64,000 bases of DNA from positions 10,155-74,154 of the forward strand of contig JAFDFZ010000016.1 in assembly GCA_019309565.1 (NCBI GenBank). The letters run 5' to 3'. The notes under the pieces are model-generated. The model saw only the letters and a program-made list of their open reading frames with translations, was not told where the DNA came from and did no database searches. The stretch comes from Deltaproteobacteria bacterium (GTDB lineage Bacteria; Desulfobacterota; Desulfobacteria; Desulfobacterales; SURF-15). Made by a program: the position numbers and the translations under genes. This document shows, piece by piece, positions 23,012 through 54,276 of this stretch; position 1 is the stretch's first letter, and each line of letters starts with the position of its first letter.

Positions 23012-23037
23012 TTTACATTCTGTAAAATAACTCGACA
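23012..23037 (+). promoter_or_regulatory. upstream activator-like dyad motif, copy 1 (TTTACATTCTGTAAAATAACTCGACA)
   Basis: One of four near-identical 26-mers. It lies 122 bp upstream of the sigma-54 element at 23134. Confidence 0.65.
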
Positions 23038-23133
23038 CTTTAGACGCTGTTGATACGCAGACTCAAATGAGAGAGCCGCAAAAAATGTTTGAAATATCGT
23101 AGTGTAACCTCATTTTGGTTTAAATGGCATCTT

Positions 23134-23148
23134 TGGCACGCGCTTTGC
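23134..23148 (+). promoter_or_regulatory. sigma-54 (-24/-12) promoter TGGCAC-N5-TTGC
   Basis: TGGCACGCGCTTTGC is an exact match to the TGGCAC-N5-TTGC consensus, and it lies 182 nt upstream of the CBS/ACT gene. Confidence 0.7.
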
Positions 23149-23329
23149 GCTTTTTAAATATTAATATCAACCAGTGTATAGATCAAACGATCCACAATAA
23201 ACGATATCACACTTCTGTTGAGTATACGAAGGTCAGAGCAGCGTTATTGATTCTTTTCTGGAGGTTTGAAATGTCATCCAAATTACTTAAGCCGAAGCAC
23301 AACAATGAAAACAAAAAGGAGAAGCTACC

Positions 23330-24007
23330 ATGTTAGTCAAAGATTGGATGAGTCGACCTGTCATAACGGTCGATGAAAATGACTCCATACAGGGTGCCAT
23401 GGGTTTATTAAAGAAACACAATATTCGAATGCTGCCCGTCTTCAAAAGTGGAAAATTAACCGGTATCATTACAGATCGCGATTTAAAGCGGGCGTCTGCT
23501 TCCGATGCCAGCACGCTTGAAATTCATGAACTATTGTACTTACTTACCAAAATAAAGGTGCGGGAAATTATGACAAAAAACCCAATCACTGTTCCTCTGG
23601 ATTTTACTGTGGAAGAAACCGCCGAAGTATTATTGCAACACAAAATTAACGGCGTACCTGTAATGGACAAGGAGGGGAAACTTGTGGGGGTCATCACCCA
23701 AACCGATCTTTTCAGAGTGATCATCTCTTTGACCGGAGTCGGGAAAAGAGGCATACAGTTCGGTTTCAAACTGGAAGACCGACCTGGTTCCATTAAAGAT
23801 GTTGCTGATGTGATTCGCGCATACGGGGGTAAGATGGTCAGCATTCTCACCTCATACGATGGTGCACCGAAAGGATACCGCTGGGCGTATATCCGTATAT
23901 ACGACATCGATCGTTCCAAATTGGAAAATCTCAAACAAGATCTGAAAACACAAGGGCCATTACTTTATATGGTCGATCATCGTGAAAATAGAAGAGAAAT
24001 CTACTAA
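23330..24007 (+). CDS. CBS-pair plus ACT-like domain protein (AcuB-like)
   Basis: Two CBS repeats (VITVDENDSI...GIITDRDL; ITVPLDFTVEE...GVITQTDL) and a C-terminal ~80-aa ACT-like segment. AAGGAG lies 8 nt upstream of the start. Confidence 0.85.
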   Translation: MLVKDWMSRPVITVDENDSIQGAMGLLKKHNIRMLPVFKSGKLTGIITDRDLKRASASDASTLEIHELLYLLTKIKVREIMTKNPITVPLDFTVEETAEVLLQHKINGVPVMDKEGKLVGVITQTDLFRVIISLTGVGKRGIQFGFKLEDRPGSIKDVADVIRAYGGKMVSILTSYDGAPKGYRWAYIRIYDIDRSKLENLKQDLKTQGPLLYMVDHRENRREIY

Positions 24008-24608
24008 TTCAGATATCGAACCGTCTCCTGAAGGAAGCAGCCCGGATCTGTATTCCTATGCACCGTTTTCTGGTTCGGTGGAAACATCTAAATCCATTCG
24101 CTTTCCACAGCAGATCGTTACCGATGAAGGCATCGAGATTTCCATCCGTCCTGTCCGTCCGGATGATGTTGCCTTATTGAAGTCACTTTTTGAATCGCTC
24201 TCCCCGGAAAGCATCTATTTCCGTTTTTTTGCGCCGATAAAGGATTTTCCGGATCATATGCTGGAAAGCTTTGCACGGATCAATGAGGATTGTGAAATTG
24301 CATTAACCGCCCTCGATCGGTCCGGGAAGATGCTCGGCATTTGCTGTATTGCTATCATGGAAGACGGGATCCGGGGAGAATTTGCGGTTCTCATAGGCGA
24401 CCCCTGGCACGGCAAAGGAATCGGCGCCGAATTGCTGAAACATTGCCTATCTCTTGCCAAAGATCGTCGGGTTGAGGTGGTATGGGGCAGAGTTTTACCG
24501 GGAAATACAAAGATGTTGGCCCTGGGAAGAAAATTGGGATTTACGTTGAAACAAGTCCCGGATGATAATGAGTATGAACTGCTTATCGATCTTCGGAAAA
24601 AAAATTAA
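23982..24608 (+). CDS. GNAT-family N-acetyltransferase (Pat C-terminal-domain-like)
   Basis: IRPVRPDDVALLKSLFESLSPESIYFRFF and the acetyl-CoA loop HGKGIGAELL. GTG start overlapping the upstream gene. Confidence 0.8.
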   Translation: MKIEEKSTNSDIEPSPEGSSPDLYSYAPFSGSVETSKSIRFPQQIVTDEGIEISIRPVRPDDVALLKSLFESLSPESIYFRFFAPIKDFPDHMLESFARINEDCEIALTALDRSGKMLGICCIAIMEDGIRGEFAVLIGDPWHGKGIGAELLKHCLSLAKDRRVEVVWGRVLPGNTKMLALGRKLGFTLKQVPDDNEYELLIDLRKKN

Positions 24609-24642
24609 GCAGTTTTTAATTTCGAAAATGCTTCCTAGTCCC

Positions 24643-25488
24643 TCAATACTCTTTCGGCATATGATTGAGTTGATCCAGGGTAAATACCGGACCATCCTTG
24701 CATACGAATTCCTTCCCGATATTGCATCGGCCGCATATCCCGATGCCGCATTTCATTCGCATTTCAAGAGACATGATAATGTGATCGGGGGCATACCTCA
24801 GTTTATCCATGACGGGCTGTGTGAATTTTATCATGATCGGAGGACCGCAAATAATGGCGTAGGTATCGATGCCTCCCGGTGGCGCCTTCTGTTCGGTGAT
24901 GGCGGGCACGAATCCGATATGGTATTTCCAGTCCGGATCATTGGTACCATCCACGGTAATGTGCACGTTGATATCCTCCCGCTTTTCCCAGGCAGCCAGC
25001 TCCTCCCTGTACAGGAGCATCCCAGGCGTCCTGGCGCCGTAAATTACGTGAATGTCCTTGAACTTCGACCGATTGGCCGCATCAAGCATGTACACGATTG
25101 AAGAACGTAGCGTTGTGAAGGCAAAGCCGCCCCCGATGATCACGACATTCTTTCCCTCCAGGACATCCCATGGGTATGAATTGCCTAATGGGCCGCGGAT
25201 GCCCATAATATCGCCCACCTTCATGGAATGCAGATATGAAGAGACCAGCCCCACCTTGTTTACGGTAAATTTTACAAAACCTTTTTCGGTCGGCGACGAT
25301 GCAATGCCGATGGGAATTTCACCTTTCCCCGTTACGGAAAGCTCCGCAAATTGTCCGGCTTTATATGTGAACTTTTCTTCCTCCTCAGGATTTAAAAAGA
25401 CTAACTTGAATGTCTTGAGGTTCTTATCTTCCGTTTCGGTTATGATTTCATCGATTCGAACCGGATAAGGCAAATACGGATTTTGCAC
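24643..25488 (-). CDS. flxA: FAD/NAD(P)-binding oxidoreductase with C-terminal [2Fe-2S] (FlxA / AsrB / PyrK-like)
   Basis: Ferredoxin-reductase-type FAD and NAD folds (GQFAEL, VIIGGGFAFTTL) and a CGIGICGRCNIG cluster motif. It is the last gene of the hdr-flx string. GTG start with AAGGAG 6 nt upstream. Confidence 0.8.
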   Translation of the reverse strand: MQNPYLPYPVRIDEIITETEDKNLKTFKLVFLNPEEEEKFTYKAGQFAELSVTGKGEIPIGIASSPTEKGFVKFTVNKVGLVSSYLHSMKVGDIMGIRGPLGNSYPWDVLEGKNVVIIGGGFAFTTLRSSIVYMLDAANRSKFKDIHVIYGARTPGMLLYREELAAWEKREDINVHITVDGTNDPDWKYHIGFVPAITEQKAPPGGIDTYAIICGPPIMIKFTQPVMDKLRYAPDHIIMSLEMRMKCGIGICGRCNIGKEFVCKDGPVFTLDQLNHMPKEY

Positions 25489-25507
25489 GAGAGACTCCTT
25501 TATTATT

Positions 25508-26572: not shown

Positions 26573-26605
26573 AGCAGGTTGCCCTTATCGAAATTGCACC
26601 GGGTG

Positions 26606-27553: not shown

Positions 27554-27554
27554 G

Positions 27555-27986: not shown

Positions 27987-28048
27987 TGTAAATACCTCCT
28001 TTATAACAACCCTCTCCTTTGAATAAATACGGAAAAAGCATACGCGCT

Positions 28049-31084: not shown

Positions 31085-31087
31085 GTT

Positions 31088-38237: not shown

Positions 38238-38249
38238 CTTTTCATCTCC

Positions 38250-38792: not shown

Positions 38793-38836
38793 TGGATGAC
38801 CTCCATTTGTTAACAGATCCAAGAGTTCTTATTCTA

Positions 38837-40861: not shown

Positions 40862-40949
40862 CGGAGTTCCCCTTAACATTGTTTGATTCTATTGAAACCC
40901 ATATCATTCATGTCAAAAATGCAACCCTTGAGTATTCACCAATAGCCCC

Positions 40950-43625
40950 TTATTGGCCGGAAGAAGCTACCTTTTCCGCTTTGACCGCACACACTTTGAG
41001 CTCGGGGATCTTGGCAACCGGGTCAAGAGCAGGATTGGTGAGAATATTTGTGGGGCTTTCGGCAAAATGGAAGCTCATGCAGAAAACCCCTCGCGGGGAG
41101 ATCGGCGTTACCTTCGCTCGTACCGTTACCGCTCCGCGGCGAGAGGTCACCTTTACCTTCTCGCCGTCTGCTACCCCTAATGTCTTGGCATCCTCAGGGT
41201 TTATCTCAAGCAGCTCCTCCCCGTGAAGCACATCGAGCCCTGCCACCTTCCGTGTCATCGTCCCGGTATGATACTGATATAGACCCCGTTCCGTGGTAAG
41301 CATAAAAGGGTATTCGTCGTCTGGCAACTCTGTCGGTGGTCTATATGCCAGGGGCGCAAATCTGCCTTTGCCCCGTAAAAAACCTTCTACATGAAGGATG
41401 GGGGTTCCGGGATGATCTTCAGAAGTACATGGCCACTGCAACCCTCCCTTTTCCAGACGAGGATAGGTGATACCGCCATAGCTTGGCGTAAGCCCGGCAA
41501 TCTCCTCCATAATCTCGGAGGGGTGATCGAAATCAAAGCCTTTGCCTCCCATCCTCCGGCCTAGTTGGGAGGTAAGCCACCAGTCAGGTTGAGAGTTGCC
41601 GATAGGCTCAATGACCTTGCGCATCCTCTGAACCCTCCGCTCAGTATTGGTAACGGTGCCATCCTTCTCGGCAAATGTCGCCGCCGGAAGAACCACATGG
41701 GCGATCCGGGCCGTTTCGGATAGGAAAATATCCTGAACCACGAAAAATTCCAGACGCCTGAGGGCTTCTTCAACGTGCTTGGCATCCGGATCGCTGAGTA
41801 CAGGATTTTCACCAACAAGGTAGATAGCCTTGATCTTTCCCTCGTATGCAGCCTCAAAGATCTCTGTGAGTGTCAGGCCGGGGGATGGGTTCAGACCGAC
41901 GCCCCAGGCCTTCTCGAATTTCTTTCTTACTTTCGGGTCGTCTACTCGCTGGTAGCCTGTATACATATTGGGCAACGCCCCCATGTCGCAGGCGCCCTGA
42001 ACATTATTTTGGCCCCTCAACGGATTAACACCCGTCGATGGCTTGCCGATGTTACCGGTAAGCATTGCCAGATTGGCAATCGCCAATACGTTATCCGTAC
42101 CGTGGGTATGCTGTGTAATTCCCATGGCATACAGAATAGCCGCAGGCTTTTTTGTTGCGTATAACCGGGCCGCTTCGACGATTAGGTCACGGGGTACTGT
42201 CGTTTTCTCCTCCACAAAATCCAGATCAAAGGACTCAAGGGATTGCCTGAAGGCATCAAAATTCTCGCAGCGTTCCGCGATGAAAGTGGGATCATGAAGA
42301 TTTTCTTCAAAGATCACGCGCATCATGCCCATGAGTAAAGCCACATCACTGCCGGGACGATGTCTCAGCCGCACATGGGCGATACGACAAAGGTCGATCT
42401 CACGCGGATTGGCTACAATAAGCTTTGCCCCGTCTTCAGCCGCCTTCCTTACTTTGATTCCAATCACGGGATGCGTTTCGGTTGTATTGGTTCCAATCGC
42501 CAAGATACTGGCAGCTCCGCTAATCTCTCCAATGGAGTTTGTCATAGCACCACTGCCGAAGCTTGCGGCGAGCCCCGCAACGGTAGAAGCATGGCAGAGT
42601 CGAGCGCAATGATCGACATTATGGGTGCCTAATACCACACGCGCAAATTTCTGGATAAGGTAATTCTCCTCATTGGTACATTTGGCGGAGGAAATGACTG
42701 CGACTTCCTCTCCTTTATACTTAGAAAGCTTAGTGGCAATCAGATCCAGTGCCTCGTCCCAGCTTGCTTCTGAAAACGAGCCATTCTTGCTGATCAGAGG
42801 TGAGGTCAGTCGATCGGAGTGGTTAATGAATTCAACACCAAATTGTCCTTTGACGCATAGGCTACCCTTATTTACGGGATTATCCGGGTCTCCAAACACC
42901 CCCACAACGCTGTTTCCCCGAGCGGCAAGGTATATCCCGCAGCCCACACCACAATAAGGGCATATCGTCTTTACTTCCTTATCCGGCCAGGTAAAGTTTT
43001 TTACCGTGAGCGCGCCCGTGGGGCACTTCGCCACACATTGCCCGCAAGATTCGCAAACAGACTGGAACATCGGCTTGTCATCGGCAGTGATGATCTTGGA
43101 GGATGCGCCGTTATTGGATAACATCAGCGCGCCAAGTCCCTGAATTTCATTGCAGACCCTTACGCACTTGCCGCAGAGAATGCACTTGCCGGAATTACGG
43201 ATAAAAAAAGGATTGCTGGAATCGATGAGAGGAGGTCTATTCAACGGTTTGAACCGCTGCCTGTCAACCCCCAGGTAGGCTGCAATCTTTTGCAACTCAC
43301 AGCGCTGATTTTTGGCACACAGCAGACAGTTCTCCGGGTGATCAGACAGCAACAATTCAACCGTGCGACGTCGGACTTCATTGACACGAGGGGTATCGGT
43401 ATGGACAACCATCCCCTCGGCCACAGGCGTCATGCAGGAGACCGGCAGATCCGCTTGACCATCGATTTCCACGATACACAGACGGCATGCGCCGTAAGGT
43501 TCCAGGTCGGGATCAGCGCAGAGGTTTGGGATGTAAATACCTGAATCCCGTGCAGCCTCCAGGACGGTCGCATCTTCCCTTGCTTCAATCTCAATACCAT
43601 CTACAAACAACCTGACATTTCCCAT
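40950..43625 (-). CDS. fdhA: formate dehydrogenase alpha subunit (Mo/W-bis-PGD, Cys ligand) with N-terminal NuoG-type Fe-S module
   Basis: 2Fe-2S and 4Fe-4S motifs, the molybdopterin-domain cluster CPYCGVGC, the active-site stretch HCARLCHASTVAGL, and a C-terminal MGD-binding barrel; 891 aa. GGAGG precedes the start. Confidence 0.88.
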   Translation of the reverse strand: MGNVRLFVDGIEIEAREDATVLEAARDSGIYIPNLCADPDLEPYGACRLCIVEIDGQADLPVSCMTPVAEGMVVHTDTPRVNEVRRRTVELLLSDHPENCLLCAKNQRCELQKIAAYLGVDRQRFKPLNRPPLIDSSNPFFIRNSGKCILCGKCVRVCNEIQGLGALMLSNNGASSKIITADDKPMFQSVCESCGQCVAKCPTGALTVKNFTWPDKEVKTICPYCGVGCGIYLAARGNSVVGVFGDPDNPVNKGSLCVKGQFGVEFINHSDRLTSPLISKNGSFSEASWDEALDLIATKLSKYKGEEVAVISSAKCTNEENYLIQKFARVVLGTHNVDHCARLCHASTVAGLAASFGSGAMTNSIGEISGAASILAIGTNTTETHPVIGIKVRKAAEDGAKLIVANPREIDLCRIAHVRLRHRPGSDVALLMGMMRVIFEENLHDPTFIAERCENFDAFRQSLESFDLDFVEEKTTVPRDLIVEAARLYATKKPAAILYAMGITQHTHGTDNVLAIANLAMLTGNIGKPSTGVNPLRGQNNVQGACDMGALPNMYTGYQRVDDPKVRKKFEKAWGVGLNPSPGLTLTEIFEAAYEGKIKAIYLVGENPVLSDPDAKHVEEALRRLEFFVVQDIFLSETARIAHVVLPAATFAEKDGTVTNTERRVQRMRKVIEPIGNSQPDWWLTSQLGRRMGGKGFDFDHPSEIMEEIAGLTPSYGGITYPRLEKGGLQWPCTSEDHPGTPILHVEGFLRGKGRFAPLAYRPPTELPDDEYPFMLTTERGLYQYHTGTMTRKVAGLDVLHGEELLEINPEDAKTLGVADGEKVKVTSRRGAVTVRAKVTPISPRGVFCMSFHFAESPTNILTNPALDPVAKIPELKVCAVKAEKVASSGQ

Positions 43626-43640
43626 ATTTTACCTCCACGT

Positions 43641-45851
43641 TTAAACCACTTCATTGGCCTGAAGCGGGCAAATGGCGTGATAAGACACCACCTCGCTGCA
43701 AATACCGTACGGACATGCTTTCCCAAGAATATGGGCCTCAAATTGATCGCGCAAATTCTCAAGAGTAAACAGGACGATATCCGGAGCGGTTTTGCCAACA
43801 GGGCATTCGGAGGCCACCTTCATCGTATCCACAAGCTCAAAGAGCAACTCCAGCTCTTCCATCCCGCTCTTGCCTGTAGCAATGTCATTTAGAATGCTTA
43901 ACATCTGGGCGGAGCCCAGCCTGCATGTGGTGCATTTTGTGCAGGACTTGTTTTGGGTTGGAACCATCATGGAGAAACGTGCCAGATCAACGGCACAACC
44001 TGAATCATGTATCCGGGTAACAAGCCGTTCGGGAACAAGCTCGGGAAGAAATGCCCTTAACCCCTCATAGCCGCCGGCATCATAGCCGGCAAGCATTTCA
44101 AGGCAGGGCAGGCATTTGTCCTCCAACGCATGATAGGCAACAAGCGCCCTGCAAACGCTTGAAAAACAGCGCTTTTTGTGGATATGGGCCTCGTATTCGT
44201 TCCGGAAATAGCGAAGGGTGGAAAGTACGGGATTCGGTGCTGTTTGACCCAAGCCACAAAGTGCCGTATTCTGTATGATCTTGGCCCATTTTTCTAAGGT
44301 CTTAATGTCGTCTTCCTTGCTGTTTCCCGCGCAGATTCTAGTGAGAATTTCCAACATCTTGTCGGTCCCGACCCGGCAGGGAGTGCATTTGCCGCACGAT
44401 TCTTCCCTGCAAAATTCCATGAAAAAACGGGCTACATCCACCATGCATTTATCTTCGTCCATGACGATCATGCCGCCCGAGCCCACAATTGCCCCCAGCT
44501 GGGTGATGGATTCATAATCGACCGGAGTATCTTGATGTTGGGCGGGTATGCACCCACCGGAAGGACCCCCAAGCTGAACCGCCTTAAACTTCTTGCCGTT
44601 TATGATGCCGCCGCCGATATCATGGATTATGGTGCCCAACGGCATCCCCATGGGCACTTCTACGAGCCCTATGTTATTCACATCTCCGGTTAAGGCAAAG
44701 ACCTTCGTCCCTTTACTCCGTTGAGTCCCGATACTCGCATACCAGCTTCCTCCATTCAGGATAATCTGAGGAATGCTTGACAGGGTCTCTACGTTATTCA
44801 GCACCGTAGGCTTTTTCCATAGACCCTGAACTGCCGGAAACGGCGGCCTGGGCCGAGGCATTCCCCGCTTCCCTTCGATGGAGGTTATGAGCGCTGTCTC
44901 TTCCCCGCATACAAACGCCCCGGCGCCCCGGTAAATTTCAAGATCAAAGTCAAAACCGGACCCGAGAATATCCTTTCCAAGGAGGCCGTATTGTCGCGCC
45001 TTATCAATGGCGATCTGAAGTCGTTTCACGGCAAGAGGATATTCCGCACGGCAATAGACGTATCCCCGGTGGGCGTTTATGGCTTTAGCTGCAATGATCA
45101 TCCCCTCTATCACAGCATGGGGGTTGGCTTCCAAAACGCTCCGGTCCATGAAAGCCCCGGGGTCGCCTTCGTCTGCGTTGCAGAGCACGTATTTAACATT
45201 GCCTCTGGATTTGGCGCAAAAGTCCCATTTTAAACCTGTGGGGAAGCCGGCCCCCCCGCGTCCCCTAAGCCCGGATTCTTTTACTTCTGCGATAATCATC
45301 TCCGGTTCCATTTCCATGAGCGCCTTGCAGGCCGCTTGATACCCCCCGGTTCCGATGTATTCATCAATCCGCTCTGCAGCGATCAAGCCCCTGTTTTTCA
45401 GCACCCGGGATTCCTGCAATGCAAAAAAGGGAATGTCCTTTCTAAACGGAATTGCTTTTCCGGTTTCCGGATCCCGATACATCAATCTCTCTACGGGATA
45501 TCCTTTCATGACGTGTCGGTCGATGATCTCCTCGGCATCACCCGGGTGCAGATATTGATAAAAGATGCCGCCCGGATAGACAACCATGAGAGGGCCCTGG
45601 GCGCAGAAACCATGACATCCTGTCTCGATCACATGCACCTTGTCCCGGATCCCTTTCTTTTTGATCTCGTCCTCCAGTTCGTTTTTTATTTGAATGCCTT
45701 TGGACGCATGACAGGCGGTCCCCCCGCAGATCAAAAGATGACACGGGTAGCTGAGCTCTCCAATGGGAAGCTCATCCCTGAATCGGATCTCCAGGAACCC
45801 GGCCATTCTGACGTATATTTCATGCAACGTTTCCGGACTTAATCGATCCAT
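43641..45851 (-). CDS. NuoF/HoxF-like NAD(P)H-binding flavoprotein with extra N-terminal [2Fe-2S] domain and duplicated C-terminal cluster module
   Basis: GLRGRGGAGFPTGLKW FMN/NADH motif, the N3-type CGKCTPCR ... LCGLG, and a second copy CTKCTTCR ... ECPVG. Start is at 45851 (AAGGA 7 nt upstream); the ORF-track TTG start is 45872. Confidence 0.88.
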   Translation of the reverse strand: MDRLSPETLHEIYVRMAGFLEIRFRDELPIGELSYPCHLLICGGTACHASKGIQIKNELEDEIKKKGIRDKVHVIETGCHGFCAQGPLMVVYPGGIFYQYLHPGDAEEIIDRHVMKGYPVERLMYRDPETGKAIPFRKDIPFFALQESRVLKNRGLIAAERIDEYIGTGGYQAACKALMEMEPEMIIAEVKESGLRGRGGAGFPTGLKWDFCAKSRGNVKYVLCNADEGDPGAFMDRSVLEANPHAVIEGMIIAAKAINAHRGYVYCRAEYPLAVKRLQIAIDKARQYGLLGKDILGSGFDFDLEIYRGAGAFVCGEETALITSIEGKRGMPRPRPPFPAVQGLWKKPTVLNNVETLSSIPQIILNGGSWYASIGTQRSKGTKVFALTGDVNNIGLVEVPMGMPLGTIIHDIGGGIINGKKFKAVQLGGPSGGCIPAQHQDTPVDYESITQLGAIVGSGGMIVMDEDKCMVDVARFFMEFCREESCGKCTPCRVGTDKMLEILTRICAGNSKEDDIKTLEKWAKIIQNTALCGLGQTAPNPVLSTLRYFRNEYEAHIHKKRCFSSVCRALVAYHALEDKCLPCLEMLAGYDAGGYEGLRAFLPELVPERLVTRIHDSGCAVDLARFSMMVPTQNKSCTKCTTCRLGSAQMLSILNDIATGKSGMEELELLFELVDTMKVASECPVGKTAPDIVLFTLENLRDQFEAHILGKACPYGICSEVVSYHAICPLQANEVV

Positions 45852-45935
45852 GTGAATATCCTTTCTATTCAATCAATGACATGTGGGTACAAAAGGCAGC
45901 ACATGCATACCCTCCGGGACAAACACGGCTTGTTG

Positions 45936-46442
45936 TTATTCATAACTTTCCAAAATTTCCTCTACTCCCGATGGTTTTACCATTGGAAAGTTGTCCTCAT
46001 CGATGACCATCGTCGGCGCCAATCCACATGCTCCGAGGCACCTGACTGTTTCCATAGAAAACCGCCTGTCGGGCGTTGTCTCCCCCGGGTTGATTTTTAA
46101 AATCTGCCTCAGTTTATCCAGGACCTTCTTGCCTCCCCTCACATAGCAGGCCGTTCCCAAGCAACATCTAACGGTATGCCTGCCCCTGGGAATCATAGTG
46201 AAAAATGAATAGAACGTGACGACGCCATACACCTCGCTGAAAGGAATGTTGAGGCCCAGCGCGACCCTGCGCTGGATTGTTTTGGGAAGGTATCCAATCG
46301 TTTCCTGAATCTCTTCCAGGACAGGGATCAGGGATCCCGGGTCTGACTTGTGCCTTGCTATGATGGCATCCACAAGCGAAACATCTTCCGGGCTTAATTC
46401 CTGCGCTACCTGTTGTTTTTCCTCAGAGATTTTCGCTAGCAT
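45936..46442 (-). CDS. NuoE/HoxE-like thioredoxin-fold [2Fe-2S] subunit
   Basis: CLGTACYVRGG ... CLGACGLAP motifs. AGGAGG lies 8 nt upstream of the start. Confidence 0.9.
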   Translation of the reverse strand: MLAKISEEKQQVAQELSPEDVSLVDAIIARHKSDPGSLIPVLEEIQETIGYLPKTIQRRVALGLNIPFSEVYGVVTFYSFFTMIPRGRHTVRCCLGTACYVRGGKKVLDKLRQILKINPGETTPDRRFSMETVRCLGACGLAPTMVIDEDNFPMVKPSGVEEILESYE

Positions 46443-46702
46443 GTGAGGCTCCTCCTAATTTTTTTTGATAATTTGACATTTTTTGAGAAGAATTCGCTTT
46501 TTTTAGGGAGTCAAAAACCGTGCCGACAGCTCAAAATTTTCCCATCTGTTTTTATACCCAAAACAACAGCTGTTTTTATATTCAACTAACATACTGAAAT
46601 TACATCTATAATTTTTACTGCTAACGGCGAAGCACCTACGTCGATAATAACTCATGGCGGCTGTGTAACTTTCAGATGAATACATTGTCGTAAAAAAGGG
46701 AC

Positions 46703-46726
46703 ACCCCGGCCTTAAAATTTGCCGGG
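46703..46726. other. GC-rich hairpin CCCCGGC-N10-GCCGGGG flanked by an A-run (46691-46696) and a T-run (46732-46737)
   Basis: Read from the sequence. It looks like a bidirectional terminator, but no convergent genes flank it. Confidence 0.35.
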
Positions 46727-46752
46727 GATTCCGTTTTTTGATTTGTTCCGGC

Positions 46753-46778
46753 TTTACATCTTGTAAAAAAACCTGACA
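46753..46778 (+). promoter_or_regulatory. upstream activator-like dyad motif, copy 2 (TTTACATCTTGTAAAAAAACCTGACA)
   Basis: It lies 121 bp upstream of the sigma-54 element at 46874. Confidence 0.65.
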
Positions 46779-46873: not shown

Positions 46874-46888
46874 TGGCACAGACCTTGC
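46874..46888 (+). promoter_or_regulatory. sigma-54 (-24/-12) promoter TGGCAC-N5-TTGC upstream of hypA
   Basis: TGGCACAGACCTTGC is an exact consensus match, and it lies 69 nt upstream of the hypA ATG. Confidence 0.7.
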
Positions 46889-46956
46889 GGTCGCCAGTGA
46901 TAGGCCGTGTTCAAGTAGAGGGTTGGAAGGTATACTGTGTAAACGTGTTGGCCGCT

Positions 46957-47298
46957 ATGCATGAACTTTCCCTTGCGCAAAACATTATTGAAATTATTAC
47001 GGGAGAACTGTTGGAAAACGGCCTGACAAAGGTCGATACCATTACGCTAAAAATAGGGGAAATGGCGCAGGTACTGCCGGATTCGCTCCGCTTCGGCTTT
47101 GAGTGTCTGATCCGGGAAACTCCTCTTGAGGGGGTGAAACTGATCATCGAGATCGTTCCGGCGAAAGGTCGCTGCATGAGTTGCGGAAAAAATTTTATCA
47201 TTGAAAACCGGGAATTTATCTGCCCGGAGTGTGGAAAAGCCGGTATCGAAGTTCTCACCGGAAAAGAACTTGAAATCGTGGAATTGGAAGGCACCTAA
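46957..47298 (+). CDS. hypA: hydrogenase nickel-incorporation protein HypA
   Basis: MHELSLAQNIIE N-terminus and the zinc site CMSCG ... CPECG; 113 aa. The ORF-track start 46885 extends over the promoter. Confidence 0.92.
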   Translation: MHELSLAQNIIEIITGELLENGLTKVDTITLKIGEMAQVLPDSLRFGFECLIRETPLEGVKLIIEIVPAKGRCMSCGKNFIIENREFICPECGKAGIEVLTGKELEIVELEGT

Positions 47299-47317
47299 CA
47301 CGATAGGAGGCAGGCAA

Positions 47318-47986
47318 ATGAAGTTGATACTGGCCAGGGACGTTCTTGCGGCAAATGATAAAATTGCCGAACAGAACCACGCCCTGCTTTCGAGCAAAGC
47401 GGTAACCGCCATCAACGTGATGAGCTCGCCGGGTGCGGGCAAAACCACTCTGATTGCGGAAACCATTCGATCCTTGAAACAGGATCTGAATATTGCCGTC
47501 ATCGAAGGAGACATTCAGTCCACATACGATGCCGAGCAGATATCCGCAACAGGCGCTCAGGTGGTTCAGATCAATACCGGCGGTGCGTGCCACCTGGATG
47601 CCGGTATGATCAATGAATCATTGGGTCATATCGATCTGGATGCGGTGGATCTGCTGATCATTGAAAATGTCGGAAACCTTGTCTGCCCGGCTGGGTTTAA
47701 TCTCGGAGAAGGCTACAAGGTCATGCTGTTGAGTGTAACGGAGGGAGACGACAAACCGGTGAAGTACCCGATGATGTTTCACGAATCGAGCGCGCTGCTG
47801 ATCAACAAAATTGACCTCCTTCCCTATATTGAGTGCAGTGTCGAGAAAATCAGGACCGAAGCGCTGAAAATCAAACCGGATTTAGGCATCTTTGAAGTAT
47901 CCGCAAAAACCGGGAAGGGCCTGGACGACTGGTATCGATGGCTCAAGAAAATGGTGAGGCGCAATGGTACGCAGGATGAAAATTAG
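47318..47986 (+). CDS. hypB: hydrogenase nickel-incorporation GTPase HypB
   Basis: P-loop SSPGAGKTTLI and the NKIDL G4 motif. Start is at 47318 (AGGAGG at 47305-47310). Confidence 0.92.
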   Translation: MKLILARDVLAANDKIAEQNHALLSSKAVTAINVMSSPGAGKTTLIAETIRSLKQDLNIAVIEGDIQSTYDAEQISATGAQVVQINTGGACHLDAGMINESLGHIDLDAVDLLIIENVGNLVCPAGFNLGEGYKVMLLSVTEGDDKPVKYPMMFHESSALLINKIDLLPYIECSVEKIRTEALKIKPDLGIFEVSAKTGKGLDDWYRWLKKMVRRNGTQDEN

Positions 47987-50285
47987 CATTCAGGGAACCG
48001 TTCAGGGAATCGGTTTTAGGCCTTTTGTTTTTAATCTTGCCAGGAGAAATCACCTTAACGGATACGTGACCAACACCAGCGAAGGGGTCGAGATCGAAGT
48101 TGAGGGAGAATCGGATGGTATTGAACTTTTCTTAAATGCCATTGAACAAAGCCCGCCGCCGCTGGCCCATATTACCGATATTATCCGAACACCGATTCCC
48201 CTGATTCAGGAAGAAAAATTCGTCATCAGGCAAAGCAGGGCCCATGAGCAGAAAATCGCTCTGATTCCCCCGGATGTGAGCATCTGCAAAGAGTGCCTCC
48301 GTGAGCTCCGGGATCCGGCTGACCGACGCTACCGCTACCCGTTTATCAACTGTGTAAACTGCGGTCCACGCTTTACCATCATCGAAGATATCCCTTATGA
48401 CCGGCCCAACACCTCCATGCAAGCATTCTTGATGTGTGCCGACTGTCTGGCGGAATACTATGATCCCGACGATCGTCGATTCCATGCACAACCTAACGCA
48501 TGCCCGGTTTGCGGACCGCAGGTGAGTCTTTACGACAATCGAGGAACCCGCCTGCTTACCGATGAACCGATTGTCGATGCTATTGAATTGCTAAAGCGCG
48601 GCGCCATTCTTGCCGTAAAGGGGCTGGGCGGATTTCACCTGGCAGTGGATGCAGAAAATGACGCTGCGGTTAAAAGCCTTCGCCACCGAAAACACAGAGA
48701 AGACAAACCGTTTGCACTCATGTCCCTTGATGTGGACCGAATCCGACGCTATGCCCACGTCGATCGCGGTGAAGCGTCCCTGCTGATGTCCCCGGTAAGG
48801 CCTATTATCCTGTTGGACAAAAAAGAGCCGAATTCGATTTCAGCGGCGGTATCCCCGGGGCTTCGCACCTTTGGCGTAATGCTGCCTTACACACCGCTGC
48901 ACTACCTTTTGCTGGAAAGCGATCTTTTGGCCCTGGTGATGACCAGCGGCAACAGGAGTAAAGAGCCGCTCGTTGTCAGCAACGCATATGCATTCAAACG
49001 GCTCGGCACCATTGCGGATTACATCCTGTTGCATAACCGTGACATCCGTGTGCGGGCCGACGATTCCATCGTTCGACGCATTGGCGGTCAAACCCGCCTG
49101 ATACGCCGTTCCAGGGGCTATGTTCCCACCCCGATTTTCCTAACCCGATCTTTCCCGCAAATACTGGCCTGCGGTGCTGAAACGGCCAATACGATCTGCC
49201 TGACCAAAGGCAAGAACGCCTTTGTCAGCCAGCATATCGGGGATCTGGAGAACCTTGAAAGTCTTATCTTCTTTGAAAAAACCATTGAACATTTCAAGCG
49301 GCTTTTCGACATATGGCCGGAGGTGGTTACCTACGATCTTCACCCCGACTACCTGAGCAGCCGATATGCAAGGCAGCTTAAAAGCGTTCGTTTGATCGGG
49401 GTTCAGCACCATCATGCACACATCGCAAGCTGCATGACGGAGAACGGAATCGAAGGGCCGGTCATCGGTTTGGCCTTTGACGGTACGGGCTACGGCACGG
49501 ACGGTCGAATCTGGGGTGGAGAAGTGCTTCTCACCCGCCCGGATAGATTTCGGCGTCTGGCCCATCTTGAATACGTTCCCATGCCGGGCGGCGCTGCGGC
49601 CGTTAAAGAGCCCTGGCGAATGGCGGTAAGTTATCTATTGCATGCCTACGGAGACGACCTGTGGAAACTTAATCTTCCCATCTTTACCGCCATCGATAAA
49701 AACAAGATCCGCACGGTCCTGGATATGATAAAAAGGGGGGTTAATTGCCCGCAAACCTCAAGCCTCGGGCGGCTGTTTGACGGGGTCTCGACCATCCTGG
49801 GCATCCGGTATCGTTCATCTTATGAGGGGCAGGCAGCGGTCGAGCTCGAAATGGCAATGGATGCGGTTGCAAAGGGGCCCTTTGCGCATTCATTTGTCAA
49901 AGAAAACGGGCTCTATCGCATTCCCGTAAAACCTATCATTCGTGGAGTGGCCGATGATTTTATGAGTGGACAGGGCGCCGGTAACATCAGCTATCGCTTT
50001 CATATGACGCTGATTCATCTTTTTTCGGATTTGTGCGAAACGCTCCGGCAGGAAACCGGTATCAACCAAGTGGTGCTAAGCGGCGGGGTCTTCCAGAACG
50101 CCGTCATGCTCGAGGGACTGGAAAACTCTCTAAACAATCGCGGTTTTCGTGTTTTCTCACACACCAAAGTTCCCTGCAACGACGGCGGGATCTCGCTCGG
50201 GCAGGCGGCTGTGGCCGAAGCCAGTTTCACATTACGGAAGGATTCACATGTGTCTTGCAGTTCCCATGAAAATCTTAAAAATTAA
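47964..50285 (+). CDS. hypF: carbamoyltransferase HypF
   Basis: Acylphosphatase domain (GTVQGIGFRPFV), paired zinc fingers (CKEC...CVNCGPRF; CADC...CPVCGP), and YrdC-like and Kae1-like domains; 773 aa. Confidence 0.93.
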   Translation: MVRRMKISIQGTVQGIGFRPFVFNLARRNHLNGYVTNTSEGVEIEVEGESDGIELFLNAIEQSPPPLAHITDIIRTPIPLIQEEKFVIRQSRAHEQKIALIPPDVSICKECLRELRDPADRRYRYPFINCVNCGPRFTIIEDIPYDRPNTSMQAFLMCADCLAEYYDPDDRRFHAQPNACPVCGPQVSLYDNRGTRLLTDEPIVDAIELLKRGAILAVKGLGGFHLAVDAENDAAVKSLRHRKHREDKPFALMSLDVDRIRRYAHVDRGEASLLMSPVRPIILLDKKEPNSISAAVSPGLRTFGVMLPYTPLHYLLLESDLLALVMTSGNRSKEPLVVSNAYAFKRLGTIADYILLHNRDIRVRADDSIVRRIGGQTRLIRRSRGYVPTPIFLTRSFPQILACGAETANTICLTKGKNAFVSQHIGDLENLESLIFFEKTIEHFKRLFDIWPEVVTYDLHPDYLSSRYARQLKSVRLIGVQHHHAHIASCMTENGIEGPVIGLAFDGTGYGTDGRIWGGEVLLTRPDRFRRLAHLEYVPMPGGAAAVKEPWRMAVSYLLHAYGDDLWKLNLPIFTAIDKNKIRTVLDMIKRGVNCPQTSSLGRLFDGVSTILGIRYRSSYEGQAAVELEMAMDAVAKGPFAHSFVKENGLYRIPVKPIIRGVADDFMSGQGAGNISYRFHMTLIHLFSDLCETLRQETGINQVVLSGGVFQNAVMLEGLENSLNNRGFRVFSHTKVPCNDGGISLGQAAVAEASFTLRKDSHVSCSSHENLKN

Positions 50286-50496
50286 GGATAATCAGGCACA
50301 GGTCGAAATCGGCGGAACTCGCCGGGAGGCCCGTCTGGATATCGTTGATCGCCCGCCCAGGGTGGGGGATTATGTGATCGTTCATGCAGGCTATGCGATC
50401 CATGTCATCGATGAACGAGAAGCAAAAGAGACTCTCGATTATTTTGAAGAGATGCTGTCCAAAAATGCTGAAACATCTGAGCGAATATCAGAATAA
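50248..50496 (+). CDS. hypC: hydrogenase assembly chaperone HypC
   Basis: MCLAVPMKI N-terminus with the essential Cys2; 82 aa. Confidence 0.9.
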   Translation: MCLAVPMKILKIKDNQAQVEIGGTRREARLDIVDRPPRVGDYVIVHAGYAIHVIDEREAKETLDYFEEMLSKNAETSERISE

Positions 50497-51550
50497 AAAT
50501 GTATGCCAAACCCTCGTAAAAAGGATTGAGGCCATCGTTCAAAAGCCGATTCGCATAATGGAAGTCTGCGGCACCCACACTATGTCGATTTCAAGGAACG
50601 GTATTCGCGGCCTGATGCCGGAGAGCGTCGCCCTGCTCTCAGGACCCGGCTGTCCGGTCTGTGTGACCTCACAGGTTGAAATCGATCGGTTTATTTGCCT
50701 TGCGAAACAAAAAGAGGTGACCATTACGACCTTCGGGGATCTGATGCGGGTACCGGGTTCGGAATCGTCACTGATTCAGGAACGGGCGTCGGGTGCGGAT
50801 ATTCGAATCATCTATTCCACCCTCGATGCCCTGGAAATTGCCCGCAATCACCCAAATCGGGAGATCGTGTTCCTGGGTGTCGGCTTCGAGACCACCGCGT
50901 CAACCGTTGCAGCCGTGGTTCTGGAGGCAACCAAGCAGGGTGTTTGGAATTTTTCCGTCATCTCTGCACACAAGCTCATCCCCCCTGCCCTCAAGGCGTT
51001 GATGGAAAACAATGCCGTGCGGATCGACGGATTTATTTGCCCGGGCCACGTGTCGGTAATCATAGGCGCTAAGGCTTATGTGCCGCTTGCGGAAACCTAC
51101 CGGGTTCCCTGCGTGGTGGCCGGGTTTGAACCGGCGGACATCCTGCAAGCCATCTATATGCTGGCAAAACAGATTGAATCTCAAACGGCAACCGTGGAGA
51201 TTGCATACCAACGCGGGGTATCCTTTGAAGGAAATGCCAGGGCCCGACAGGTAATTCATCGGGTATTTGAACCATGTGATGCACAATGGCGGGGGTTGGG
51301 GTGTATTGCTGAAAGCGGCCTGAAGTTCCGAGCGGAATACGGCCGGTTCGATAGCGAAAAAAAATTCGGCCTGCCTGTGGGTTCGGCATCGGAGCCGCGG
51401 GGGTGTTCCTGCGGCGATATTCTGATGGGGATCAAGTCGCCTACGCAGTGCGCACTGTATGCTAGGACTTGTACGCCGGCGCATCCCGTAGGGCCCTGCA
51501 TGGTATCCACGGAAGGAACCTGTGCGGCATATTACAAATACAGTATTTAG
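50465..51550 (+). CDS. hypD: hydrogenase maturation factor HypD
   Basis: CGTHT, GPGCPVCV, GFETT and PGHVS motifs. It overlaps hypC by 32 nt. Confidence 0.92.
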   Translation: MLKHLSEYQNKNVCQTLVKRIEAIVQKPIRIMEVCGTHTMSISRNGIRGLMPESVALLSGPGCPVCVTSQVEIDRFICLAKQKEVTITTFGDLMRVPGSESSLIQERASGADIRIIYSTLDALEIARNHPNREIVFLGVGFETTASTVAAVVLEATKQGVWNFSVISAHKLIPPALKALMENNAVRIDGFICPGHVSVIIGAKAYVPLAETYRVPCVVAGFEPADILQAIYMLAKQIESQTATVEIAYQRGVSFEGNARARQVIHRVFEPCDAQWRGLGCIAESGLKFRAEYGRFDSEKKFGLPVGSASEPRGCSCGDILMGIKSPTQCALYARTCTPAHPVGPCMVSTEGTCAAYYKYSI

Positions 51551-51593
51551 AACAGAGTAAACCACTAAATACCAAAATACTAAACACTCATTA

Positions 51594-52610
51594 TTGAAAA
51601 TGAATGCAAACAAAATACTTCTGGACCATGGCAGCGGTGGCCGGGCATCCCATGAACTGGTAAGAGAGATTATCTACCCGTATTTTGAAAATGCCATTCT
51701 GGCGCAAATGGATGACAGCGCTGTTTTCTCCATTGCCGATGAAAGGTTCGCCTTTTCGACCGATTCCTACGTGGTGGACCCCATCTTTTTCCCGGAAGGC
51801 AGCATCGGCAATCTGGCCGTAAACGGCACCGTAAACGATCTGGCCATGTGCGGAGCAAAACCGCTCTTTATCAGTGTCGGTTTTATCATTGAAGAGGGGT
51901 TTCCGCTGGAAGATCTTCAAAAAATACTGCGACACATGCAGCAGGCTGCACAGGAAGCAGATGTTAAAATCGTCACAGGCGATACCAAAGTGGTCTACAG
52001 CAAAGCGGCCGATAAAATATTCATCAACACATCCGGAATCGGAAGAATCCCGGACAGGGTAAATCTTTCAGGGGAAAATGCGGTGCCGGGGGATCGAATC
52101 ATCCTCAGTGGTACGGTGGCCGATCACGGAATCACCATTCTTACGCAAAGAGAAGGGCTCTGCATGGATTTTCCTTTAAAAAGCGATACCGCCCCGCTCA
52201 ATCACATGGTACAGAAAATTATCGAATCAAGCCGTCATGTCCACAGCCTGCGGGATCCCACCCGAGGCGGTGTTGCCACGTCTCTGAATGAAATCGCCGC
52301 TCAAGCCGGAGTCGGCATCATGATCGATGAAACGGCCATTCCGGTCCGGAGTGAAACCAGGGCGGCCTGTGAACTGCTTGGTCTGGACCCGCTGTACATA
52401 GCCAACGAAGGCAAACTTATCGCCTGTGTGGCTGCAGCGGATACAGAAGCCGTTCTGGCGGCGATCCGCACAAGTCCGTACGGTCAGGACGCACAAATAA
52501 TAGGTGAGGTAACGGCAGTGCATCGTGGAAAGGTATTCATGGAAACAGCTATCGGCGGGGCGCGCATCCTCGATATGCTCGCCGGCGAACAACTGCCCAG
52601 AATCTGTTGA
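51594..52610 (+). CDS. hypE: hydrogenase maturation factor HypE
   Basis: PurM-like fold, and a C-terminus ending in PRIC (the carbamoyl/cyano-carrying Cys). Confidence 0.92.
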   Translation: MKMNANKILLDHGSGGRASHELVREIIYPYFENAILAQMDDSAVFSIADERFAFSTDSYVVDPIFFPEGSIGNLAVNGTVNDLAMCGAKPLFISVGFIIEEGFPLEDLQKILRHMQQAAQEADVKIVTGDTKVVYSKAADKIFINTSGIGRIPDRVNLSGENAVPGDRIILSGTVADHGITILTQREGLCMDFPLKSDTAPLNHMVQKIIESSRHVHSLRDPTRGGVATSLNEIAAQAGVGIMIDETAIPVRSETRAACELLGLDPLYIANEGKLIACVAAADTEAVLAAIRTSPYGQDAQIIGEVTAVHRGKVFMETAIGGARILDMLAGEQLPRIC

Positions 52611-52653
52611 GTCGAAAAGGGGAGTGTGAGAAAAAAAGCTGAAGCCTTTATTC

Positions 52654-52679
52654 TTTACATGCTGTAAAAAAACTCGACA
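52654..52679 (+). promoter_or_regulatory. upstream activator-like dyad motif, copy 3 (TTTACATGCTGTAAAAAAACTCGACA)
   Basis: It lies 120 bp upstream of the sigma-54 element at 52774. Confidence 0.65.
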
Positions 52680-52773
52680 TCCGGTTTGTTCAGCCGGTCA
52701 GGTCCTGTTTTTGGCATTAAAATAATTTGACATCATTCCGGATAGTTCTACATTCATAGGTTTCTTTTCTCTG

Positions 52774-52788
52774 TGGCATGGACATTGC
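52774..52788 (+). promoter_or_regulatory. sigma-54 (-24/-12) promoter TGGCAT-N5-TTGC
   Basis: TGGCATGGACATTGC lies 36 nt upstream of ATG 52824. Confidence 0.65.
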
Positions 52789-52823
52789 TCTCCAGTAAAG
52801 AATATTACTGTAAGGGAAGAAAA

Positions 52824-53237
52824 ATGAGAGAGGGATTTACCATTCTTATCGCCGACCGGAATCCACACGTTCGTGAATTATTGAAGCGCGAAATGATAGC
52901 GGAAGGTTATAAAGTGCGGTTGGCTGAAAATGGACGGGACGTGCTGAAATGGTCTTACGATTCTAGCCCTCTCGATCTTTTGATTTTGGATCCGGATTTG
53001 CCGGACATCGATGAATCCGCTTTATTTGCACGGCTGGCCGATCGGATACCCGCTTTGCCGATGGTCATTCATACCTTTTTTTCAGATTTCGATGTTCCAT
53101 CGAGTACTTCAGGAACAGTCGCTTATGTGGAAAAAGGAGGAAGCAGCATCGAAAACCTGAAACAGGTTGTCACCAAGTTCCTGAACAAAGCCGATTTAGC
53201 AATATTTCAAAGAAAACAGAACCGGGTCAAGATCTAA
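52824..53237 (+). CDS. single-domain response regulator (REC only)
   Basis: ILIADRN ... LLILDPDLPD ... VIHTF ... VEKGG receiver pattern. Start is at 52824 (AAGGGAAG upstream); the ORF-track GTG 52773 overlaps the promoter. Confidence 0.8.
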   Translation: MREGFTILIADRNPHVRELLKREMIAEGYKVRLAENGRDVLKWSYDSSPLDLLILDPDLPDIDESALFARLADRIPALPMVIHTFFSDFDVPSSTSGTVAYVEKGGSSIENLKQVVTKFLNKADLAIFQRKQNRVKI

Positions 53238-53333
53238 ACTCAGGATAAGCTTGAAAACTAGTGGATTATGAATCATGATGCCGGGTTCAAACGTACCATA
53301 AAAATCGATTGTTGGGTGCAACGGGCAGTTTGT

Positions 53334-53894
53334 TTAATCATTACGGGCACAGGCTTTTATTAAATGGAAAATCGCGGCAAATACATCGGTCAACCGTAAT
53401 ATGCCCACGATATGTTGCTTACGGGTGATCAGAAGTGATTGATATTGCCCCAGGACCAGCTGGTGAATGGCTTCATTCAGGGTGGTATCTTCATCCACAT
53501 GCTCACCCTCTGTGGGTTTATGCATGAAGTCTTTAACCTTCAGGGTGGCGGCTTTTTTGCAGATATCGCTCATGGCCCCGCTCCAGAGATCGTAATGGTC
53601 CATCAAGGATTTCATAAATTCCCTGGTCAGGCCGGAATGTGCCATGCCTTCCCGGCCCAGTACCCGTTCATATTTCGGCTCCAGCGCTTTGAGCACATCC
53701 AGCTGGCTTATCTTGCCGATAACTTGCTTGTTCTTATTCAGAACCAGTAATGCGCGGTGGCGATACCGGGTGTGGTCGAATGCTGCCTGAGCCTTTTCCA
53801 GGGCCATGACCGCTTCATATAAGGTGGCATCCTCAGGGACAGCGGCGTATTCCGATAGTGGAACCATCAAGTCTTTTACCATGGGATATTTCAC
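53334..53894 (-). CDS. CBS-domain pair protein
   Basis: Two CBS repeats (MVPLSEYAAVPEDATL ... GKISQLDVL; MHKPTEGEHVDEDTTL ... GILRLTDVF). Confidence 0.85.
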   Translation of the reverse strand: MKYPMVKDLMVPLSEYAAVPEDATLYEAVMALEKAQAAFDHTRYRHRALLVLNKNKQVIGKISQLDVLKALEPKYERVLGREGMAHSGLTREFMKSLMDHYDLWSGAMSDICKKAATLKVKDFMHKPTEGEHVDEDTTLNEAIHQLVLGQYQSLLITRKQHIVGILRLTDVFAAIFHLIKACARND

Positions 53895-54141
53895 TGTAAA
53901 ACTCTCCTCTCCTAGATGTACTTTATCTGGTTATATCCGGCCTTTGCCGTCTATGTTGAAGCAAACAGCATGCCACTTCAAATCGTTACGCTAAGAGGGG
54001 AAAACATACTGAATATAAAAATATTTTTTGTAAGCAACACCATTTTGGGAAAAAGATTACATGGGTGTTGTGTCGGTTTTTTTACAGCTTATAAAATTAT
54101 AATTTAGAATGCGTTATTAATATTAATTTTACGGCATCGCT

Positions 54142-54167
54142 TTTACAACTTGTAAAAAAACTCGACA
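54142..54167 (+). promoter_or_regulatory. upstream activator-like dyad motif, copy 4 (TTTACAACTTGTAAAAAAACTCGACA)
   Basis: It lies 120 bp upstream of the sigma-54 element at 54262. Confidence 0.65.
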
Positions 54168-54261
54168 AACTCCGGTTTTTTCAAAGATCCGATATTTCAC
54201 CTTTCTTTAAAATATATCCTAATTTCAAATAGTTACCTCTTTGTTAAGATGGGTTAAACCC

Positions 54262-54276
54262 TGGCATCCGGCTTGC
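54262..54276 (+). promoter_or_regulatory. sigma-54 (-24/-12) promoter TGGCAT-N5-TTGC
   Basis: TGGCATCCGGCTTGC lies 149 nt upstream of the kinase ATG 54425. Confidence 0.65.

Follow-up and report, generated by a model that had tools for sequence, protein, structure and literature searches.

The enhancers of NtrC (GlnG) at glnAp2 have the sequence TGCACC-N5-GGTGCA, i.e., TGC-N11-GCA. Here, we describe a 26-nt element that occurs five times in 64,000 nt of a Deltaproteobacteria bacterium (GenBank assembly GCA_019309565.1, contig JAFDFZ010000016.1, positions 10,155 to 74,154 of the forward strand; this whole stretch is referred to as the window), each time upstream of a sigma-54 promoter. The element resembles the NtrC enhancers in its 17-bp dyad geometry and in its position about 100-140 bp upstream of the promoter. 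It would also share with them the use of DNA looping and the class of the activator, which combines a response-regulator receiver (REC) domain, an AAA+ domain and a Fis-type helix-turn-helix (HTH). However, the half-sites differ, and there is one composite site per promoter and not tandem dyads. No nitrogen-assimilation genes are found among the targets, and the partner kinase of the candidate activator is a 4HB_MCP-type membrane sensor, not NtrB.

TGT/ACA half-sites upstream of sigma-54 promoters, often with a binding site for integration host factor (IHF) in between, are also typical of NifA. The original prediction, which was made from the window alone, compared the geometry with NifA-type sites. 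The half-sites and their position upstream of sigma-54 promoters agree with this comparison, but the spacer is N11 and not N10. The identification as a NifA upstream activator sequence was rejected because of this spacer and because no nif genes are present; moreover, the candidate activator has a REC input domain and not a GAF domain.

The closest precedent is the DVU0110 regulon. For DVU0110 of D. vulgaris and its orthologs in D. piger and D. magneticus, the site TGTAAAAAAAGCTGACA has been predicted (Kazakov et al. 2015, PMC4641369, Additional file 4), with CGTAAAAAAAGCTGACA in D. vulgaris Miyazaki and TGTCAAATAAGCTGACA as the second site of D. magneticus. In the same study, the 17-mer was derived from five sites with one or two targets per genome, a single motif was assigned to DVU0110 and the plasmid-borne DVUA0057, and the function was guessed to be exopolysaccharide/biofilm formation and transport. 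In vitro, binding of DVU0110 to the upstream region of DVU0132 (a TSUP permease) was seen in electrophoretic mobility shift assays and by DNA affinity purification on chips (DAP-chip) (Rajeev et al. 2011, PMC3333781). Our literature search found no paper that mentions DVU0110 beyond these two.

The enhancer was originally taken to be uncharacterised. This has to be revised, as its 17-nt core, TGTAAAAAAAC(C/T)(T/C)GACA, is essentially the TGTAAAAAAAGCTGACA predicted by Kazakov et al. The core was thus already known as a prediction, and the system is not of a new kind. The cores in the window, TGTAAAAAAAC(TC or CT)GACA and TGTAAAATAACTCGACA, differ from TGTAAAAAAAGCTGACA at two to four positions, all of which are in the spacer beside the GACA arm except for an A to T change at position 8 of site 1. 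The two systems have in common the TGT-N11-ACA core, the A-tract, the (C)TGACA arm and, as judged from the comparisons below, an orthologous activator with a near-identical HTH; the TSUP permease target is also found in related loci with the motif. They differ in that the published motif is a 17-mer, while the element described here is a composite of 26 nt that has one orientation, keeps a fixed distance from the promoter and is often accompanied by an IHF-like site. The regulon is also larger here and of other content, including a cluster of DASS transporters, two-component systems and CBS proteins, an AcuB-GNAT unit and the hyp genes.

What is new is therefore the oriented composite of 26 nt, its breadth across the phylum and its fixed geometry, which includes an IHF-like site. 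Also new are the candidate activator found next to the window and the putative link to the DASS sulfate-transporter cluster, AcuB-GNAT and hyp. We suggest that the 26-nt element is the upstream activator sequence of sigma-54 promoters and is bound by an activator of the DVU0110/DMR_16180 type, and give this reading a probability of about 0.8.

Five sites at a fixed distance from sigma-54 promoters

The four plus-strand copies originally reported were all recovered at their coordinates by exact pattern match. The positions of the TGGCAY-N5-TTGC elements that follow them and the distances between motif and promoter were also correct on remeasurement. However, four is not the total, as the window holds a fifth copy on the minus strand. 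The sites and their promoters are listed here.

23012-23037, plus strand: enhancer site 1, TTTACATTCTGTAAAATAACTCGACA, exact match; promoter at 23134, 122 nt downstream
23134-23148, plus strand: sigma-54 -24/-12 element of site 1, TGGCACGCGCTTTGC
46753-46778, plus strand: enhancer site 2; promoter at 46874, 121 nt downstream
46874-46888, plus strand: sigma-54 -24/-12 element of site 2, TGGCACAGACCTTGC
52654-52679, plus strand: enhancer site 3; promoter at 52774, 120 nt downstream
52774-52788, plus strand: sigma-54 -24/-12 element of site 3, TGGCATGGACATTGC
54142-54167, plus strand: enhancer site 4; promoter at 54262, 120 nt downstream
54262-54276, plus strand: sigma-54 -24/-12 element of site 4, TGGCATCCGGCTTGC
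54071-54095, minus strand: enhancer site 5, TTTATAAGCTGTAAAAAAAC-CGACA, reading from 54095 to 54071; promoter 120 nt downstream
53961-53975, minus strand: sigma-54 -24/-12 element of site 5, TGGCATGCTGTTTGC, reading from 53975 to 53961 and preceding a CBS-pair gene

Site 5 is one base shorter than the others and carries one substitution, in the distal arm. The two divergent promoters, at 53975 on the minus strand and 54262 on the plus strand, each have their own copy of the motif, and these copies are in opposite orientation. There are five exact TGGCAY-N5-TTGC elements in the window, while 0.45 are expected and none of 100 shuffles reached five. All five are paired with a motif at 120-122 nt.

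The motif is A/T-rich, partly palindromic and present in several copies, so it could be a dispersed repeat, similar to repetitive extragenic palindromes (REP) or miniature inverted-repeat transposable elements (MITE), or a chance recurrence without a regulatory role. However, the four plus-strand 26-mers did not occur in any of 100 dinucleotide-preserving shuffles, even with three mismatches allowed, and the flanks of the sites are unrelated. The spacers between motif and promoter had been described as unconserved, and their pairwise identity, 0.50-0.65, is indeed close to the shuffle means of 0.53-0.56. With spacers at the level of shuffled sequence, duplication of a single segment does not account for the sites. 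Further, the motif keeps its position and orientation towards sigma-54 promoters across many genera and before different genes, see below. Together, the unrelated spacers, the recurrent promoter geometry and the fixed orientation effectively refute the repeat, and we see next to no chance for an explanation of this sort.

The same geometry in other genomes

The 26-mer was searched as an exact pattern in 185,579 species genomes, one genome per species (GTDB). The 74 loci found are nearly all (about 68) from Desulfobacterota and include Desulfobacter, Desulfospira, Desulfosarcina (Ds. variabilis), Desulfatitalea, Syntrophobacteraceae, Desulfomonile, Syntrophales and one Desulfovibrio. At 40 loci, GG-N10-GC with at most two further mismatches to TGGCAC-N5-TTGC is found 117-125 nt downstream of the motif, where 0.002 per locus are expected. 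Desulfobacter and Desulfospira have a variant of the -12 region, TGGCATATATCTTGA. When this variant is allowed, [TC]GG[CT]A[CT]-N5-TTG is present 108-131 nt downstream in 52 of the 74 loci, compared with 0.24 expected in total, while none of the six motif loci from clearly unrelated phyla has a sigma-54 element at this distance.

In nine loci (L011, L017, L025, L047, L053, L059, L063, L067 and L073), the canonical element is replaced by TGGCATATATCTTGATA, located about 116 nt from the start of the motif. This Desulfobacter/Desulfospira element has GA instead of the GC at -12, and its position relative to the enhancer is unchanged.

The distance from the motif start to TGGCA, measured over 72 sites, is most often 120-122 nt, with extremes of 112 and 130. 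The promoter is downstream in the forward orientation at 81 of 109 sites and in the reverse orientation at five. A scan of metagenomes with a single variant of the motif, ACTCGACA, gave 13 loci, none of them from the samples of the window itself, and ten of the 12 that could be evaluated have a promoter at 100-121 nt. The recurrence of the geometry in the genome and metagenome loci thus bears out the proposal that the motif is a sigma-54 upstream enhancer that defines a regulon.

Anatomy of the composite element

The element is a real composite of a distal palindrome TTTACA-N3-TGTAAA, an A-tract and a proximal (C/T)(T/C)GACA. It contains three ACA/TGT half-sites, at positions 4-6, 10-12 and 24-26, and the proximal arm together with the central TGT forms the TGT-N11-ACA dyad. 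The dyad spacer is N11 in all sites save the fifth, which is 1 nt shorter. The scan pattern fixes 20 of the 26 positions, and the composite was therefore tested independently, with a search whose sole condition was a TGT-N11-ACA dyad located 106-118 nt before a sigma-54 element. It identified 19 additional sites, and 18 of them have the exact TTTACA-N3 extension, which shows that the composite does not follow from the scan pattern. In the D. magneticus site, the dyad is preceded by TTGACA-N3 and lies 110 nt (counted from TGT) upstream of the sigma-54 element TGGCACGGCGTTTGC. The composite and its spacing hence extend to the Desulfovibrionales, although only the 17-mer was published.

The composite might also consist of two operators, so that the activator uses only the TGT-N11-ACA 17-mer and the palindrome serves a second dimeric regulator, acting as co-activator or anti-activator. 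No part of the element varies less than the palindrome, which overlaps the 17-mer by one half-site; the motif published for the orthologs is the 17-mer only, and the strict orientation would fit two different bound proteins. However, no second DNA-binding regulator co-occurs with the sites, and the neighbouring REC proteins lack output domains. Moreover, the D. magneticus element (TTGACA-N3-TGTCAA...CTGACA) has a distal half-site that differs in step with the other two, as if a single protein reads all three. We therefore consider two operators unlikely and prefer the reading in which one activator recognises the whole 26-nt element.

Conservation between enhancer and promoter is limited to an A/T tract at +69 to +75 with an IHF-like site behind it. 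Matches to the IHF-like WATCAANNNNTTR at 8 or more of 9 positions are found in 22 of 68 spacers, compared with 10.4 expected, and all but one of these 22 are located at +80 to +84. In the window, the spacer of site 4 contains the IHF-like TTTCAAATAGTTA at 54223-54235, which agrees with the consensus at 8 of 9 positions and begins 81 nt after the first base of the site.

The candidate activator

The original prediction saw no AAA+ sigma-54 activator in the window. This was corroborated, since tblastn of the activator described below matches only REC domains there, and the window open reading frames (ORFs) of 456-476 amino acids (aa), checked for an activator, are sulfatases and a hydrogenase large subunit. 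The only candidate put forward was the truncated gene at 63647, which might continue into an AAA+ domain and a Fis-type HTH. It does not; the full gene, taken with its downstream genes from a longer contig of the same organism (L001), encodes a 301-aa protein with a REC domain and a CBS pair.

About 0.8 kb past the end of this REC-CBS gene, the longer contig encodes a membrane histidine kinase (489 aa), a sensor with a 4HB_MCP-type domain, and then a 478-aa protein with the domains REC-Sigma54_activat-HTH_8. The pair is located at L001:11424-14326, approximately 1.3 to 4.2 kb past the window end (equivalent to about 65.3-68.2 kb). The activator gene itself (L001:12890-14326) lies about 2.8 kb past the end, and its product contains the GESGTGK and GAFTGA motifs. 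This NtrC-class REC-AAA+-HTH protein, encoded together with its own kinase, is the most likely motif-binding protein, given its domain content and the linkage described next.

Full-length orthologs of the activator, with 60-74% identity, are present in ten of the 74 motif loci, which are 8 kb each. In six of these (L004, L010, L019, L044, L048 and L055) the ortholog ends a few tens of bases before the motif, and in four (L003, L037, L040 and L058) it is a few kb away. Any other sigma-54 activator is found in one motif locus only. In terms of genes, ten of the 12 activator genes within motif loci are of the DVU0110 type, and the other sigma-54 activators there are about 40% identical. The partner kinase is conserved alongside the activator and marks two further motif loci. 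An 8-kb locus is a tiny share of a genome with tens of such activators, and thus it is very unlikely that the motif and the activator are linked by chance. From Desulfovibrio to Desulfobacter, the candidate activator and kinase are conserved at 60-85% identity. Against plasmids, tblastn of the activator gave generic matches only (about 41% identity).

In the longer contig, about 770 nt without a called gene separate the REC-CBS gene from the kinase-activator pair (L001:10650-11424, window equivalent about 64553-65327). In Ds. variabilis, the REC-CBS gene is followed by the motif and a DASS gene, while the equivalent stretch here has no copy of the motif.

The activator was compared with two named families. 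It is rejected as NtrC (NR(I)), as it scores 493.4 bits with the equivalog TIGR01818, below the cut-off of 558.6, and the JGI name "NR(I)" for its homologs is an over-annotation. It is also rejected as PrsR, the PEP-CTERM-box regulator, with 431.5 bits in TIGR02915 against a cut-off of 502.6; DVUA0057 scores 585.

Another sigma-54 activator of overlapping specificity, such as a PEP-CTERM regulator of the PrsR/DVUA0057 type, could nevertheless bind the sites. In Kazakov et al., DVU0110 and DVUA0057 share a single motif, the DVU0132 region is bound by both, and the sites of DVUA0057 are also TGT-N11-ACA. However, the activator linked to the motif falls below the PrsR cut-off and is only 36% identical to DVUA0057, most of the activator genes in motif loci are of the DVU0110 type, and no exosortase or PEP-CTERM genes are among the motif targets across the loci. 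A PrsR-type protein at these sites is thus distinctly improbable, and the DVU0110-type protein is retained as the candidate.

The relationship to DVU0110 can be followed through D. magneticus. The activator is 61% identical over its full length to the protein P0230 of D. magneticus RS-1. On the RS-1 chromosome, the P0230 gene is flanked by both published DMR_16180 sites, at -528 from a TSUP gene and -203 from an MCP gene. As the published sites at their published offsets flank P0230, P0230 is DMR_16180, the ortholog of DVU0110.

For DVU0110 itself, the labels of the table of DNA-binding domains in Additional file 2 of Kazakov et al. 2015 appear to be shifted, as seen when checked against pDV1 (NC_005863; our loci L077-L080). 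Under the name DVU0110, the table gives the domain of the PrsR-type pDV1 gene, DVUA0057; under DVUA0057 it gives that of DVUA0024, and under DVU1949 that of DVUA0143. We infer that the response-regulator block has been rotated by one row. Such a rotation would explain the label mismatches of DVU0110 and DVUA0057, and it also brings out the expected similarity of the paralogs DVU0539 and DVU0946. With this correction, the HTH of the activator best matches the DVU0110 domain, a comparison that covers the relabelled 42-aa domain only.

Target genes

The gene calls of the four downstream units originally described (AcuB-like CBS/ACT and GNAT, hypABFCDE, an orphan REC protein, and the kinase/REC-DASS cluster) are upheld by Pfam, and site 5 adds a fifth unit. 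The units, all assigned by Pfam, are as follows.

23330-24608, plus strand: unit 1, AcuB-like CBS-pair+ACT protein (23330-24007) and GNAT acetyltransferase (23982-24608)
46957-52610, plus strand: unit 2, hypA, hypB, hypF, hypC, hypD and hypE ([NiFe]-hydrogenase maturation)
52824-53237, plus strand: unit 3, single-domain REC protein, 137 aa
54425-64000, plus strand: unit 4, genes from the dCache kinase at 54425 to the REC-CBS gene at 63647
first genes of unit 4, plus strand: dCache kinase 54425, REC-DASS fusion 56166, REC 58245, dCache kinase 58760
later genes of unit 4, plus strand: REC 60484, DASS transporter 61010, 149-aa protein 63142, REC-CBS 63647 (continuing beyond the window)
53334-53894, minus strand: unit 5, CBS-pair protein, 186 aa

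Across genomes, single-domain REC proteins are the commonest target family (a cluster of 52 members, and in metagenome loci too), followed by kinases homologous to the dCache kinase at 54425 (22) and AcuB-like CBS-ACT proteins with or without GNAT (8). The CBS-ACT homologs are downstream of the motif in seven foreign loci, and GNAT likewise in L030. Further targets are TSUP permeases, Usp, cyclic nucleotide (cNMP)-binding and cytidylate-kinase-like proteins, and one multihaem cytochrome. Operons of TSUP permeases are targets in eight related loci (including L012, L019 and L040) and in D. magneticus; there is no TSUP gene in the window.

The hyp genes are not downstream of the motif in any of the foreign motif loci. 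As they are a target only in this organism, the hyp operon looks like a lineage-specific recruitment to the regulon.

The region of the window from 52.6 to 64 kb is syntenic with a cluster of Desulfosarcina variabilis (L031, CP159846), with 79% identity between the DASS proteins. A second DASS gene of Ds. variabilis is immediately preceded by the motif and a sigma-54 element. A study of that genome (PMC11887813, Sci Adv 2025) describes a conserved 30.5-kb cluster of Desulfobacteraceae with DASS-type sulfate transporters, many two-component systems and CBS-domain proteins. The sensor kinases of the two-component systems carry cache domains, and it is speculated that the cluster senses sulfate and the energy state; control by the cache kinases, their response regulators and the CBS proteins is proposed. 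The paper makes no mention of sigma-54 promoters, of this enhancer or of a DVU0110-type activator. The cluster in the window has the same gene content and order as that of Ds. variabilis in L031 (kinase-REC-DASS-small protein-REC/CBS).

The REC-DASS fusion (56166-58232) is clustered with two dCache kinases and three single-domain REC proteins. The fusion suggests a transporter under direct phosphorylation control.

A few other features of the window adjoin these units. The leader of site 1, from the predicted start to the CBS-ACT gene (23149-23329), is unusually long, about 170 nt, and a short ORF begins near 23272. An Rfam scan of the window gave no match, hence no known riboswitch or small RNA was found in the long 5' leaders. 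Immediately upstream of site 2, at 46700-46745, the plus strand has a G+C-rich hairpin (CCCCGGCC...GCCGGGG) and, after it, a stretch of T. No plus-strand gene ends there, and the adjoining NuoE-like gene (45936-46442) is on the minus strand. This gene belongs to a cluster that is divergent from the hyp operon (36807-46442, minus strand) and encodes NuoE-like and NuoF-like proteins, two molybdopterin/Fe-S (formate-dehydrogenase-like) subunits and a [NiFe]-hydrogenase large subunit; neither the motif nor a sigma-54 element faces it. Upstream of the regulon region, genes of the sulfatase/phosphodiesterase family are found at 8156, 13515 and 18609 (region 8156-19997), unlinked to the motif.

Proposed mechanism

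We suggest the following mechanism, which is built on the arrangement of sites, promoters and genes. A phosphorylation-activated NtrC-class protein (REC, AAA+ with GAFTGA, Fis-type HTH), the ortholog of DVU0110/DMR_16180, would bind the element and form oligomers there, between about -146 and -121 as counted from the predicted transcription start. With the DNA bent at an A/T-rich, IHF-like stretch centred near -58, the activator could then reach the closed complex of the sigma-54 holoenzyme, and ATP hydrolysis by the activator would open the promoter. In this way, one signal may switch on five units: the orphan REC protein, the CBS protein, the dCache-kinase/REC/DASS cluster, CBS-ACT with GNAT, and hypABFCDE.

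It can be speculated what this signal is. In sulfate reducers, the DASS and TSUP families are candidate carriers of sulfate and sulfur oxyanions (PMC5840216). Because DASS and TSUP transporters as well as CBS and Usp proteins are among the targets, we propose, with low confidence, that the regulon responds to the supply of sulfate or sulfur oxyanions or to the energy status. Transport of sulfate by the DASS proteins of the window is likewise putative.

Several points weigh against this picture. The gene rpoN was not seen in the two contigs of the organism, and here no copy of the motif adjoins the activator gene. A good IHF match is present in one of the five spacers of the window, that of site 4, while the others are merely A/T-rich at this position. 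The geometry is not universal, as the published D. vulgaris positions, -442 for the site and -232 for the promoter, put the two about 212 nt apart. Since DVU0110 and the PrsR-type DVUA0057 could not be told apart by Kazakov et al., the sites might also be bound by a paralog, and the reassignment of the DVU0110 domain depends on the apparent rotation of the labels. Finally, the signal is a guess from annotation and from the speculative model of PMC11887813.

Implications

How sulfate-reducing bacteria regulate their sulfate uptake and energy metabolism is poorly understood, and the sole published model of the DASS/two-component/CBS cluster (PMC11887813) names neither a promoter type nor a DNA-binding regulator. 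The cluster now gains a wiring that can be tested, with defined sigma-54 promoters, a 26-nt enhancer, and a named candidate activator and kinase. The DVU0110 regulon, formerly of two operons and with the provisional label "biofilm/transport", now appears broad and rich in signalling genes. In addition, with a site that does not vary, a fixed spacing and a strict orientation, the system is a clean natural case for studies of sigma-54 enhancer geometry.

It is a tentative proposal that the element is the cis-regulatory signature of a regulon spanning the Desulfobacterota. If true, this regulon would supply a transcriptional layer that is absent from current models of sulfate uptake, and it would bear on the switching between sulfate respiration and hydrogen metabolism in sulfate reducers.

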